A stretch of DNA of 58,190 nucleotides, the filler included, from Sluysia triapertura (taxonomy: Eukaryota): NCBI GenBank assembly GCA_046118255.1. It is 5 parts of 5 records of this genome, joined end to end, with 100 filler letters (N's around TTAATTAATTAA, not from the genome) between each part and the next. Parts side by side here need not be neighbours in the genome. Positions count along the whole stretch, not along the records: positions 45,980 to 58,190 come from JBJNIA010128851.1; 4 more parts are not named here. The stretch is one strand, 5' to 3'. This document shows, in pieces, positions 31,281 through 53,900 of the stretch. Under the pieces are notes generated by a model. It was not told the DNA's origin, made no database searches, and saw only the letters and a program-made list of their open reading frames with translations. Within the stretch, counting starts at the first letter, position 1, and each line of letters opens with the position of its first letter. A program made the position numbers and the translations under genes.

Positions 31281-31853
31281 TTTTTCGTTTCTGATTTCAA
31301 AATCAATAAATATTGTTTGTTTATAAAGTGTGTATCATTTGGGAATACCTTGAGAACAAACTTAAATTTCTTATTTCCTTTAGCCTATCTTTACAATTAT
31401 AATTAAATGTGTAGTAACTTTTATTTTAAAATTGATTAAATAATTGAGATTATTTTAAAGATTAGTTTAATTTGTTGCTAAATATAATAAAATTTTGTAA
31501 AAAAATTATAAACTATTTCTAACGTAAAGTTTGTTTAAGAAACAAACATATTTAACAATGTAAAATAAATTTCAAGTAATTTTATAATCATTATATAAAT
31601 AAAATAATTTTAATTACTATATGCAATCACATTAATTTTTATCATTCATGTTAATTTGAGAGAAATACAGTAAAATATATTGTCATTTGTTTTTTCGAAT
31701 CAAACTATATATTTTTTCATTTTTCTAGTTAGAATTAGTTATTTAAATTCACTTTACTATTTTTAGGTAGTTTTGTTACTAATTTTACTTTTATTGCGCT
31801 TAGATATTTAATTATATTATTTGTTATTTTAACGTGCTTTCAGAAATTGTATA

Positions 31854-32460
31854 ATGAGCAAATCCACCACAGAATGGGATGATGCCATGCACAAGTTTGG
31901 TATTATACCAAAAGAAGCTGAAATTACAGAAGAAGCTATTATAAGCATGATTGAAGAAAAAGTTGAAAAGTCACGCCAGTGTAAATTAGAAGAAAAAACT
32001 AATGAAGAATTAGACGAATTAGAAGATGATTTGAAAGATGATGAAGAGGAAAAAATAATTGCTAGAATTCGTGCACAAAGACTAGCAGAAATGAAACAAA
32101 AATTAAAAATGGATAAATTTGGTGATGTGATTGAAGTAACAAAATCGGATTGGAAAACGGAAATAAACGAAGCTGGTGATGGAGTTTGGGTAGTTGTATT
32201 TATTTACATGACTGGGTTAGAATTTATATTCATAATCAATTTTTTTTAAAGAAATATATTGTGCAATAAAGTTAATGATGCAATTATAAAATTGGCAGCT
32301 AAATTTAAAAATGTGAAATTTGTTAAAGGTGTTAGTGAATTATGTATACAAAATTATCCGGAAAGAAATGTTCCTACCATTATTTTATATAAAAATGGAG
32401 AAGTTATGCGCCAATGGATCGGTTCGGATGAATTTGTGCCAAATAAATTCAGTGTAGACT
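31854..32460 (+). CDS. PDCL3: Phosducin-like protein 3 / VIAF; exons 31854-32215 and 32252-32460; last exon uncertain
   Basis: TEWDDAMHKFGIIP, LDELEDD, R.QRLAEMK..KFGDVIEVTKSDWKTEINEAG..VWVV and LAAKF..VKFVK....CIQNYPERNVPTI; a 36-nt intron restores the frame. Confidence 0.9.
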
Positions 32461-32949
32461 GTTAGTTTTTTTGTTTATAAAGCTGAATTTTTTAAAGGCA
32501 ATATACAATACGAATGAAAATTCAATATTTGCGCATCATAAAAAGCAAAATAGTCCTAAAATTGGTATGTTCTTTCGATTTACAAATTGTTGCTATTCAT
32601 ATTGTTCACATTCTACATAAACTCTGACGTAATATTTACAGTCAGGTGATACACCAGGCTGTTGGGATAAGATTTTAGAGCACGATCAAACGTCAAATAA
32701 TAATTAATGATTTGTATCCTAACACTATGATCCATCAAACCTAATTTGTTTTAAAATGTTTCATAATAACATCAAACATGGTACAAATAGACTTGATTGA
32801 ATTGCATTAAGTTTCTCTGTTAAAACATTGATTCATTTCTGCATAGAATTAAATGATCCGAATTTAAAAACTTTTACGATGTACGAAAAGCAACTTCTCA
32901 ATTTGTATAATTTGATTTATAAATAAAACATCAAATAAATTTAATCCTA

Positions 32950-34475: not shown

Positions 34476-34575
34476 NNNNNNNNNNNNNNNNNNNNNNNNN
34501 NNNNNNNNNNNNNNNNNNNTTAATTAATTAANNNNNNNNNNNNNNNNNNNNNNNNNNNNNNNNNNNNNNNNNNNN
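34476..34575. other. Assembly spacer
   Basis: Same 100-nt spacer. Confidence 0.98.
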
Positions 34576-45879: not shown

Positions 45880-45979
45880 NNNNNNNNNNNNNNNNNNNNN
45901 NNNNNNNNNNNNNNNNNNNNNNNTTAATTAATTAANNNNNNNNNNNNNNNNNNNNNNNNNNNNNNNNNNNNNNNNNNNN
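45880..45979. other. Assembly spacer
   Basis: Same 100-nt spacer. Confidence 0.98.
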
Positions 45980-46079
45980 ATTATAATACCTTATCTTAGT
46001 TCTTTAATAACGCTCTACTTATCATATTATTCCAAGTTTTGACCCTTATATCAACCTTTATCCTTCACTAGTCCCAACA
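45980..46079 (-). mobile_element. Second copy of the same putative LTR end, truncated by a gap
   Basis: About 2 mismatches to 11291-11364 over 74 nt. Confidence 0.7.
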
Positions 46080-46227
46080 AATTAATGCTAATACTATTCT
46101 GCCATTTATTTTAATATTTACTATTGGACTTTTCGAGCCATTGTAGTTATTGTTTGCACATATCATATACATTACATGTGGTGGTGACGTTGAGGTAACA
46201 GTATATATTCCCTTTTTCTGACTTTCT

Positions 46228-48180
46228 TTAGTTTTCTATAATTTTCTGATTTTCAATAAATTTTTGACTTTCTATAATTTCTTCATTTCTATTGTTCTGT
46301 AATGATTGCAGTGTTGTATTTCCTCTGTGTGATGTCTTTCCTTTCTTAATGCATTTATATGAGCATTTGCGTGATGGTGTAAGAGATATTTCGCTAGAAA
46401 CGGAAAACATCCGTTTATTAGTTTTCATACAAATCCTGAAATTTTATAAATTCCAACTACTGAGAATGCTTGAGAAATTATCAATGCTATTGCCTTAATT
46501 ATTATATAAATTCATATTAGTCCTGAAAACACTTGTCCTAATAATAAAAATTCGTGTTTTTTTTGTGTATCTTGTGCGACTCTTTTAAAGTGATCAGGTC
46601 CCAAAAGTAATTCGAAGTTTACTTGTCCATTCTTTTCGACACTTGCCTTATCTACAATTTCTGTTAACATTTTTGATCTCTTTATTGGGAATAATATTTC
46701 CTGCCAAGCTGCTTGAATATCATCATTTGTGTAGATACCGGAATTAGGTATATTTTTTGTAGCTAAAAAAATTAAATTTTCTTTTTAGTTAAGTTAGTCA
46801 CATAATTTCTGAAGTTTTAACTTGACTCCTATATGGTAATAATATCCACAAATTGTCATCTATTCTATATTCCGGTGCCATGACATTAGACCAATGCATT
46901 AATTTTGGTTTCACCTTATTATTCGGAAAAATTACTTTTGTTACCATTCAAGGTATGTTTCTACTTTACTATACAATATAGGTAACTGGTTTATGCATTC
47001 AGTAGTTGACCTTTCTTGTACTTCTACTTTCTTACATTTATATATGCATAATACTTCTCCCAATAATCGACCAAATACTCCTTCCTCTAATGGTAATAAA
47101 GGTGCGACTAAATCCGGGTTGGTAATAGCTCGTAATAGTTTGTAATATTTACTTATTTAATTGAAAATCGCTTGTAACCATAATTTGATAAATCTTTTCT
47201 AATGATATTAAATTTAAATGATAGTAGAAATCGATTTCATTGTTAAAATAGATGTTTAATTTTACATTTTTCGCATCAGCACCTTTTTTAGCTTGTTGTA
47301 TTGTTTTTACCGATAAATAAATTCCTTGGTGATTTGTTTCAGTTATTTTCTTACAACTGAATTATTGTTCCTTTTAAAATAAAAGTCAAACAATCTTTTT
47401 CTCTGCTTGTCATTAATAATGTTGGCCTTTCCACTTCATCTAATCTTTTTCTTTGCACACGATCAATATTTTTGTTTATTTTCTCTTTTGGGTATTCATC
47501 TTTGTCTTGATATATAAACCCAGGTACTAAATTAAATTTTATTTGCTTTAGAAATATTAGGGGACATTGAAATTTGTCCAACTCGTAAATTAATGTTGAC
47601 TCTCCTGTGTCACAACTAGTCTGCTCACTTTTACAATATGATCATGACATAATTGTTCCTTTTTCCATGTAAAAACTTTCATTAAATGATTTTAAACTTA
47701 CTAAATATATATCTTGTGCCACAACATTGTGATAAATTTTTCCTTCATATTCTATTGTTCCTTCTTCACACGTTCCATTTATTAGTACATTACCTGCTGT
47801 TCTTATTTTGTAAATAATTTTCTCATTATTTCCTATTTTTAACTTATCACCTTTAGTTAAGCTTATGTTCCTGTTTCGAATGCATCCCTACATTGTCTAG
47901 GTAATATTTTAAATGGTTTAAGCACATCTGGTCACAATATTGTCTCATATTAAAGTTGTCACTAAATTACCCTCTTGGTAAACACTCATTACTTCAGTGT
48001 CATTTCTTTGTATTCGATTGGCCTTGACTCAGGACAATCTTCCATGTCCAGTAACGAGAATTTTCTACCTATCTGAAACTGACTACAATCAAATGTCTTT
48101 ATCACATTAGTCCTATTTATATCAAACACTGATAACAGTATTATGATAACAACATATTCGGCATTCAGTTTAACTCTTTC
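46228..48180 (-). pseudogene. Chuvirus-type viral envelope glycoprotein (env), disrupted
   Basis: Collinear motifs: signal-like VVIIILLSVF, KTFDCSQ..FSLLDMEDCP, AGNVLINGTCEEG..EGKIYHNVVAQ, CDTGESTLIY..CPL, TNPDLVAPLL..GVFGRLLGEVLCIYKCKKVEV..TTECINQLPI, MAPEYRIDDNLW, SGIYTNDDI....EILFP, then a hydrophobic transmembrane region and a tail. The order matches Chuviridae G as recalled. Confidence 0.8.
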
Positions 48181-49295
48181 CTAAAAGTATTTGATCTTAA
48201 CTTATTATAATTTCCGGTATAGTGCTCATGCCTTCCACATTTATGACAAACTATATTACCTTCTTTATTTGTTCGTGTTTTATAGTTACTTTCAATATAG
48301 TTTGGTCTTGCAGGACTCTTATTTCTTATAGAAAAGTTATTATTATTAAATTGATTGTTAGGCCATCTTGGTAATGGGCGCTGTTCATACTCTTGAGCCT
48401 ATATTATTCGGTTGTCTTTTCTCAAATCCTCTATTGTTTCTACCTACATTAGTATAATTTCTTCCTATATTATTTCTCTGTGTAAAACTATTCGAATTTC
48501 TTCTGTTATTTCCTCGAAAATTATTACTATTGCTACTATTATTATTAAAACTATTATCATCAAAAGAATTCTTTTACTTACGCTTAGGGAATTCACTGGA
48601 GTTATTTTCTATATTTTTATTGTTATCATCTATATAACTTAAATTATTTCTTCCTTCATTTCTGGTACGTTCAATACCACTTAATTTCTTAACTATACCT
48701 TTAAATGACAAATTATCAATTAAACTTACATAAATTAGTAATTCAGGGCGAAGCACATTTTTAAACTTATATATTAATGTTGCTTATCTTTTATTCTCTG
48801 AAATTTTGGCTCTGGTCGCTAAACTTTTAAGTGCACAGGCATATTCGTAAACTGTTTCATGAGCTTTCTGTATCTTTATATTAAGCATCTTTGCGTAATA
48901 TTTAGCTATATCTTCTAAGGCTATTTCTTCAGTAAAAGTATCGACAAATGTATTCCAATTTTCTTTATATTCTTCTCCTATTTCCTTATAAGTCTGTATT
49001 GCTACACCAGTCAAGTAATATTGAATCCTCTTAATTTTATCTAATTGTGTTCAACCATTAGCTTCAGTTATGCTATCAAATTCAAATAAAATGCCGTAAA
49101 GATCTTCCTCGACGCCATTAAACTTGCGCATTTCGGGAAATATTACCATTGGCTTAATGCTGTGAGTTAATTGAGACATATAGTCTCTAAATTCATCAAA
49201 TGGAACAGTAATTATAAATCTTTCTAATGAATTACTTCTTAAAGTTCTCTTAAGTTTCTTCTTAGTTTTATCTTTATTATTATTACTATCTATTC
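48165..49295 (-). pseudogene. Ty3/gypsy-like gag, disrupted
   Basis: KFNGVEEDL....EFDSITEANG*T..DKIKRIQYYLTGVA, Q..HETVYEYACALKSLA, FKNVLRPEL and a zinc knuckle CHKCGRHEHYTGNY (last Cys changed to Tyr); ends GAG TTA AAC TGA. Confidence 0.85.
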
Positions 49296-49658
49296 TTAAA
49301 ACTTAAATGTGAGTGCTTAACAATAAAATTCAATATAACGTAAATACTTAAAACAAAATCAATGTAACTTCAACTTAAATAACAAATAAACGTAACTTAA
49401 ATTAATACTTAACTTAAAAATTCAACAACTTAACAATAATCGTAATTAAACTTATCAATTAACAATGATACAATAATCAATCAAAAACTTTAATTAACTT
49501 AATAACGTAATTAACAACACTTAATACAACTTTAAAATAATCAAATAATCGAAGACTTAATAACAATTTAAATTAAATCGTAACTGGAAAACTTAATTCA
49601 ACCTAATAAATGCTAACTTATTAATACTTACTTAAAAACTTATAACATACTTTGGCCT

Positions 49659-49676
49659 GTCCCAATTCGGGTGCCA
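49659..49676 (-). promoter_or_regulatory. tRNA-Lys primer-binding site
   Basis: TGGCACCCGAATTGGGAC matches the tRNA-Lys(UUU) PBS TGGCGCCCGAACAGGGAC at 15/18; it lies 5 nt after a CA and upstream of gag. Confidence 0.8.
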
Positions 49677-52254: not shown

Positions 52255-53195
52255 ACGTATATAGTAATTTCGACCAATAATTTTCAGTCGTTTTATTTTT
52301 AAAATTGAAAATTTTGTTACTTATTAAAATAAAGACTTATGTTAAAATTAAAAATAAATTTTTCAAAAAATAAAAAGAAATTTTAATTTTAATTATCTAT
52401 TTATTTTCATTTAATGTAAAATCCATTATCTATTTATTGTTTTATTAATATTGCCTCTTTATAGGTATTATTTGAAGTTCAAGCTATAATTCAAAAGTAT
52501 TATTTTAAAAATTATTTATTTTAAATATTACTAGCACTTTAATAAACGTTTATTTAACTGTTTATAATCAAATACAAAATAAATTATTAAATTCAAAACG
52601 AAACTTAAGAATTACAAAAGTTTATGTCAAATTCTTTTAAATAACATTTAATTACTTTGATTTTCAATGAACCCTAAGGATATGACTATAATCTTTGACT
52701 TATGAAGTATAGTAGGGTTGTTTGTAACTATGAGCCAATTAAAATATGTTAACTTAAACTGACACTCAACTTGCAATTCAAATACTTGAGATCGATGTTA
52801 AGTCGATTTCTATAGGAATTAATAGTTATAAATTAATGAATCCGATTCATTTACCAAAATAAAATTATTAACTACTAGATACAATAAGAAATTAAATATA
52901 TCAAACAAATATAAAGACTAATAAAACAAAGTAGTACCATCAGTTTAATTACTAAGATTTCCTTAATAAGAGCAATATATTTTATAATAATAATGACAAT
53001 AATAATAATAATAATAATAATGATTATTATTACTATAATTATAATTATAGTAAATATAGCGATAAAATCTAATGTAAAATAAGTACTCAAAAGCGCTTAA
53101 GATAAAATATTCATTATAATATTTCTGAAACAGAAAGCCCTTTGACGTTTTAAATATTTCATAATCTTTCTACCAGTGTTTTTCTTCTTATTTAA

Positions 53196-53900
53196 CGGGA
53201 ATTACAGGAGATGCAATTAATATAATTGGTGTAATGAAAGCTTTTTGTGAATTAGGACAAAAGAAGTTAGAAATTAAATTACGAGTTATGAAAAAATGTT
53301 CTGAAGAAATGATAATGGGGATGGACATATTATCACAGTTAAAAAGAATCACATTAGATTTTGATCAAGTAAGATTGATGGATAGTCGATCAAAAAGAGT
53401 TATTGGCGATGATGATGTATACATAGACGAACCACTTTGGTTATTAAAAAGAAATGAATATATAGTGCCATAAAACAAACAGTTTATTAACTGGGTGTAT
53501 TATGTTTATTGCGTCAGAATCTAATCAAGGAAAGTTTGATATAAGAATAGCAAGTGCGGTGTGTAATAATTGCGAAGGAAAATACCAGTCCGTATTATAA
53601 ATTATACGAATGACAACAAATAGCTTTACACTGGTAGGAAAAATTGTCAAGTACACAATACCTGCACATATTAATGGATGATAAAAATAAGTTCGAAAAT
53701 AAGATCAAAAATAATATAAAATTGCAACGTGAAATACAAGACGAAGACTCTGGCGAAATAGAAATCACTGATAAAAATTTAACAAAGAAACAAATACACC
53801 AGTTATATGACGTTATTTATCGTTAGCAAAAAATAAATATGATATTGAAGACTCAGTAATAACTAAACATGAAATATCACTAATAAGAGACAAAGTAATT
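53196..53900 (+). mobile_element. Ty3/gypsy pol remnant (protease C-terminal half and pre-RT spacer)
   Basis: GITGDAINIIG..MIMGMDILSQ (ILGMDFL motif), IPVRIINYTND, NLTKKQIHQLYDVI..TKHEISL; RT itself is missing. Confidence 0.75.

Follow-up and report, generated by a model that had tools for sequence, protein, structure and literature searches.

How is the envelope protein of this retrotransposon translated, when its reading frame is displaced by -1 from gag at the very point where gag stops and no ATG precedes its mature domain? The window, which is the whole stretch of 58,190 nucleotides that was analysed, is made up of five contigs that are unrelated to one another, each about 11-12 kb long, and neighbourhood across the joins is meaningless. 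The element occupies the minus strand of one contig, where profile search, BLASTP and tblastn gave the order gag, env and protease start (Table 1); we read it as a Ty3/gypsy retrotransposon of the gag-env-pol type, in a copy that is dead. Elsewhere in the window, host exons at 372-11073 (minus strand) with weak matches to cadherin, EGF and laminin-G domains point to an AT-rich animal host, and a phosducin-like host gene lies at 31833-32500 (plus strand) with a probable 36-nt intron at 32216-32251. A 2-kb repeat in two inverted copies about 80% alike (2117-4253 and 24668-27112) contains long open frames without Pfam match, and may represent a mobile element of unassigned type.

Table 1. Positions of the features discussed, counted along the window
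Feature	Position	Strand	Basis or remark
N linkers, 100 nt each	11365-11464, 23105-23204, 34476-34575, 45880-45979		
Primer-binding-site-like 18-mer starting TGG	49659..49676	-	sequence
gag capsid region and Asn-rich linker	48361..49299	-	four internal stops; frame change near 48390-48360
gag 3' end, zinc knuckle without its last Cys	48168..48359	-	zf-CCHC_3 E 0.044; translation
TTTTAG, stop closing the env frame upstream; resembles a 3' splice site	48181..48186	-	putative exon would start at the first env codon
G-UUA-AAC heptamer in gag frame	48168..48174	-	translation; candidate slippery site
gag stop TGA (48167-48165) and adjoining ATG (48164), gag frame	48162..48167	-	translation
Hydrophobic stretch and spacer ahead of mature Env start	48094..48156	-	presumed signal or signal-anchor
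Predicted hairpin	48114..48154	-	distance from the heptamer: outer stem 13 nt, 12-bp core 19 nt
env, gB-like (Monjiviricetes-type) fusion glycoprotein	46275..48180	-	at least 8 frame pieces; tblastn of 8 relatives
Protease (pol) start	46071..46130	-	same frame as last env piece; truncated by repeat and contig end

The capsid region of gag gave a Retrotrans_gag match below the cut-off (E 0.0011) and aligned by BLASTP with the Gag of a relative, P0018 (E 1e-12). The gag frame ends 14 codons past the zinc knuckle, and in this it looks like a separate ORF1. Among the six env pieces scanned, four matched PF24664, the Monjiviricetes fusion glycoprotein family (best E 5.7e-18). This gB-like env, together with the order gag, env, protease, places the copy among the GAG-ENV-POL gB-type Ty3/gypsy elements (errantiviruses in the wide sense). 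The preliminary description had env taking the place of pol. This idea is not supported and we rejected it: a protease start lies behind env at 46130-46071 and shares its frame. Env and this start form a single alignment with P0018 (E 5e-29) and likewise with P0009, and eight relative proteins and two relative loci have the same env-protease fusion. The segment itself gave no Pfam match, and its similarity to the protease start of P0017 (11 of 16 residues identical) is weak when taken alone (E 0.075).

The contig stops after the protease start, and the RT-RNase H-integrase part seen in relatives would lie beyond its end. Since RT and integrase are absent from the contig, the clade of the element is not assignable. 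The protease is cut off at 46079 by a 74-nt inverted repeat (46006-46079 and 11291-11364, 97% alike) that terminates two contigs; a different repeat of high copy number has probably inserted itself here. On the plus strand of the same contig, at 53165-53660, a second decayed protease-like remnant has weak similarity to the pol of P0009, P0002, P0033 and L001 (best E 2e-5). No second LTR or repeat partner was found in the contig or the window, and no second copy of the element within the window. The primer-binding-site-like 18-mer at 49676-49659 may resemble a tRNA-Lys site.

The copy is dead: nine frame changes (the junction included) and ten internal stops fall in 1,082 codons, the borders between pieces being our reading of the tblastn alignments. 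The preliminary description mentioned neither the eight frame changes outside the junction, nor the ten stops, nor the protease start behind env. At the junction gag ends AGG AAA GAG TTA AAC TGA, and translation confirmed both elements as first described, the heptamer (48174-48168) and the stop (48167-48165). Translation agreed equally with the earlier account of the other frame: the -1 frame begins after the TAG at 48183-48181, reads ERVKLNAEYVVIIILLSVFDINRTNVIKTFDCSQ, and has its first Met within the mature domain. The gag and env frames are jointly open over 13 nt, and the heptamer fills this zone. Only 36 codons separate the zinc knuckle from mature Env in this copy, vs 246-710 in all six relatives that show both. 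The hydrophobic stretch begins 21 residues ahead of the FDC of mature Env in the -1 frame, and 19-23 residues ahead of it in 14 relatives.

Gag-pol frameshifts usually occur at the end of gag. G-UUA-AAC was correctly cited as the frameshift site of equine arteritis virus, as it is listed in Table 1 of PMC3835772. An X XXY YYZ-type heptamer is present inside the overlap and in the upstream frame, but it is the non-canonical G-UUA-AAC, at a chance level of 23%: among 2,212 hypothetical -1 break positions, 503 had a heptamer of the same class within their doubly open zone. The exact heptamer occurs in frame a single time in the 3,249 coding nt. Two of the three relative loci also have a heptamer in the same register, by chance. 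Hence the heptamer is weak evidence for frameshifting. At the other breaks of this copy a comparable heptamer in the last 21 nt is found at none of the three -1 breaks, and at one of all eight.

The hairpin predicted behind the heptamer has a stability of -12.7 kcal/mol. Compared with 200 dinucleotide-shuffled sequences its z is -1.6, and 14 of them folded equally well. The 60 nt after the heptamer give the best fold among those behind 32 in-frame heptamers (-12.7 vs -9.0 kcal/mol for the next), and 6 of 316 windows were as stable. Typical spacers of frameshift sites are 6-9 nt (accessible part of PMC3835772), whereas the stem here would start at 13-19 nt. As a stimulator the predicted hairpin may therefore be both weak and too far away. 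No exact 6-8 bp stem starting at most 18 nt from the heptamer was found, and an Rfam scan gave nothing of note, with two matches at chance level.

Fusion of Env to Gag is the rule among informative relatives. The library-wide search with one env piece found 32 relative proteins at E<=0.001, 24-39% identical, and cluster look-ups added three. We looked at 34 proteins, and 15 of them contain the Env start; 12 of the 15 have at least 144 in-frame residues upstream, and four have the Gag knuckle in frame. Of the others two begin at a Met 19-23 residues upstream of the Env start and one begins inside Env. At least three relative loci came from a metagenome scan: L003 is a single gag-env-pol frame of 2,693 codons, L001 is open for 489 codons upstream of Env and onward through pol, and L002 has a single in-frame TGA (L002:3058-3060) between a gag frame of 999 codons and env, before the hydrophobic stretch, which may reflect decay or readthrough. 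Protein searches favour fused forms, so the DNA loci weigh more. Neither the 15 Env-start proteins nor the three loci, all relatives at about 30% identity, showed a -1 shift at the gag-env junction. The earlier suggestion that Env is part of a fusion initiated in Gag, with no ATG of its own, fits the family, as judged from the relative proteins and loci and from the planarian element Burro.

Several of these relatives have features of their own. P0004, P0006 and L002 have an accessory region with ubiquitin-like and BCL2-like domains between knuckle and env. After Env, P0002, P0015, P0033 and L001 have repeats resembling aspartic proteases, in numbers from two to four or more. P0009 (HBK71150.1), a Gag-Env-Pol polyprotein, bears the database label of a hypothetical protein from a Flavobacteriaceae MAG, and its source is probably a mis-binned animal contig. 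In a tree of 30 of 37 sequences, from which sequences with short matches were left out, the window sequence forms a long branch with weak support and no close relative. Protein collections (word-index search), viral contigs and prokaryote genomes yielded no close member of the family; one match at 0.84 to P0018 in a protein atlas is a lead only.

One reading is that in the active element, like in Burro, Gag, Env and Pol shared a single uninterrupted frame, and that the -1 offset is one further decay indel, with the motifs at the junction there by chance. Every informative relative is fused, whether protein, locus or Burro, and the relatives flank the window sequence on both sides in the tree (with weak support). 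This copy has eight other frame changes, and its gag capsid and Env start already share one frame, only the knuckle piece being offset. Against this, the copy has a further three -1 changes over some 3,250 nt, and by our own arithmetic that leaves a chance of about 5% for one in the zone of about 50 nt between knuckle and hydrophobic stretch. The linker would also be more than 200 codons shorter than that of any fused relative, heptamer, hairpin and acceptor-like site would all have to be coincidence, and across most of the zone two other contigs show no gap. We regard a continuous frame broken by decay as unlikely. The short spacing between knuckle and Env favours an offset by design, and so does the small probability that decay broke the frame at this place; the fused relatives and the decay of the copy speak the other way. 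It is likely that the offset belongs to the design of the family, as we infer it for the active element.

Other copies of the family bear on the same point. The family is abundant, with 6,364 contig pieces of one public DNA run mapping to the element over the 4.2 kb covered by the mapping, and the window may itself derive from that run. Two contig ends from other copies stay in register over 48180-48168, with 8 of 13 letters alike by eye and no gap, which leaves less room for an indel private to this copy. No indel at the junction appears among the 12 of 88 indels listed, where several of the other breaks are likewise missing. Conservation of the heptamer, the check first proposed for this junction, gave a divided answer: its five central letters are kept in both contigs, but its first and last bases differ. 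The same mapping speaks to the possibility that a long linker between Gag and Env, of the size seen in relatives, was lost from this copy by deletion. The junction bin has the lowest mapping depth of the bins from 45990 to 49232, and other copies contain many deletions. Such a deletion would have had to spare the knuckle at one end and the hydrophobic stretch at the other, the two contigs run on alike through the heptamer, and no large cluster of loose ends falls at the junction among the 6 of 1,234 listed. We consider a deletion scar very improbable.

Designed offsets can be read in more than one way. The TAG closing the env frame upstream is part of a motif resembling a 3' splice site, so the two frames may be joined by splicing, which the preliminary description named only as a check. 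Env-pol would then be expressed from a splice site at 48181/48180, its donor lying either in the leader or within gag, and Gag from the unspliced RNA. This TTTTAG followed by R is the sole one in 3,711 nt of coding strand, it stands exactly at the opening of the env frame and in phase 0, and such context is found at none of 102 other frame-closing stops. Three phase-compatible GT donors lie at most 270 nt upstream, a GTAAGT stands at 48729, and the two contigs of other copies agree through the acceptor-like AG inclusive. The env of insect errantiviruses is typically spliced, and in one subclade the donor lies inside gag, according to the accessible part of PMC12992720. On the other side, the site was spotted after the fact, and under a looser rule all three relative loci, too, have a site resembling an acceptor ahead of the hydrophobic stretch. 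The density of strict acceptor-like sites here is 1.6 per kb, and the donors near the site are not strong. Learning a host splice motif from open-frame joins yielded no motif, and no joint matching such an intron was found among the 15 of 132 joints listed for contigs of one DNA run. Splicing is possible and explains the layout about as well as frameshifting, and we place it on the doubtful side.

The ATG adjoining the gag stop offers another way in. Translation may restart at this ATG, or the TGA may be read through, and the frame would then have been broken later, inside the signal stretch. The ATG stands about 24 residues ahead of the mature start, a normal length for a signal peptide, and P0014 begins 23 residues before its mature start, likewise with M-P-N. 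The in-frame TGA of L002 lies 78 nt before the mature start and the TGA of the window 74 nt. In this copy, though, the ATG at 48164 gives in the gag frame a product of seven codons, MPNMLLS-stop, and a restart demands an extra indel within about 25 nt. Of random breaks, 17% have an ATG at an equally short distance from the stop. Starts set by gene callers are unreliable, as shown by P0012, which begins 8 residues before the mature start, vs 63 for its cluster-mate P0035, and P0001, the tree sister of L002, has a sense codon at the position of the L002 TGA. A restart or readthrough is quite improbable in our judgment. Under frameshifting, splicing and decay alike, Env is made without an ATG of its own, within a longer protein that has an internal signal stretch.

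Frameshifting at G-UUA-AAC is narrowly our first choice for how env is reached, and a tentative one, based on one dead copy. It is favoured by the heptamer filling the doubly open zone when none of the three other -1 breaks has a comparable one, by the best fold among 32 heptamers, and by env and pol sharing one frame in relatives. It is disfavoured by the fusion of Env to Gag in relatives, the decay of the copy, the 23% chance of a heptamer, the weak and distant hairpin, and the changed ends of the heptamer in other copies. The frameshift claim of the preliminary description is possible and narrowly preferred; no relative shows the -1 shift it implies, and the acceptor-like site accounts for the layout about equally. 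With an ATG and an acceptor-like site at the junction as well, chance must account for two or more of these motifs. It is impossible for heptamer, hairpin, acceptor and ATG to be functional together, hence the AT-rich junction is rich in coincidences and each of them was discounted. The weights given to the readings of the junction are judgments and not computed values.

According to the frameshift model, most ribosomes would halt at the gag stop and release Gag. A few would slip by -1 on the heptamer and go on to make a polyprotein of Gag, signal anchor, Env, membrane anchor and Pol, which would be cleaved by signal peptidase and by the protease of the element. Where env lies between gag and pol, the elements inspected use a single frame, so Gag, Env and Pol would arise in equal amounts. 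We hold it about evenly balanced whether a compact, high-copy gag-env-pol lineage captured a gB-like env behind the gag/pol recoding site, with one frameshift (or splice) setting the ratio of Gag to Env-Pol and with the enzymes tethered to the envelope tail. The gag-env-pol order is already known; a recoded Gag/Env-Pol junction would be new. If true, the recoding step would show how a particle sets its Gag-to-Env ratio and packages Pol through the envelope. If the copies prove fused, the locus is one more decayed example of the known gag-env-pol type.

Known systems share parts of this layout. Nematode endogenous retroviruses (Sacco et al. 2022) reportedly carry one continuous gag-env-pro-pol ORF. 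Like the window element they have env and pol flipped and a glycoprotein from an RNA virus. The ORF1a/1b site of equine arteritis virus has the same heptamer, but there a pseudoknot of 43 kcal/mol follows at 5 nt (PMC3835772, in the part available), vs the 10-13 kcal/mol hairpin predicted at 13-19 nt here. Drosophila errantiviruses are like the window in having an env exon without its own ATG, whereas their env is F-type, lies behind pol and is spliced by demonstration, where the window offers a motif only (PMC12992720, as seen in part). In the available portion of PMC3383448 no passage deals with splicing or frameshifting. No paper on frameshift-fed Env in an LTR retrotransposon was found in the literature searched, which extended neither to Sacco et al. 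2022 nor to the ORF files published by Chary and Hayashi.

The closest types are found among gag-env-pol elements of other animals. Chary and Hayashi 2026 (PMC13524379) described GAG-ENV-POL HSV/gB-type 'ancient errantiviruses' in Nematoda, Bryozoa and Platyhelminthes. By the accessible text, these have in common with the window element the gene order, a gB-type env, an ectodomain between two hydrophobic stretches, an animal host and many copies, and they differ from the window copy in being intact. The main text, as far as available, makes no mention of frameshifting, splicing or readthrough, and its ORF files may contain two-frame cases. Burro (GYPSM1), a planarian Ty3/gypsy element described by Arkhipova and Yushenova 2019 (PMC6431247, accessible part), likewise has an env related to mononegavirus fusion glycoproteins between gag and protease, in frame with pol and without a separate start. 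Unlike the window element, Burro is one ORF of 4,873 aa, with MATH, ubiquitin-like and BCL2-like domains between its knuckles and env. We rejected an assignment to Burro; such a long accessory region is absent from the window element. At the place where Burro has it, the copy shows a stretch of 36 codons with the gag stop and the -1 offset, the last amid eight other frame changes.
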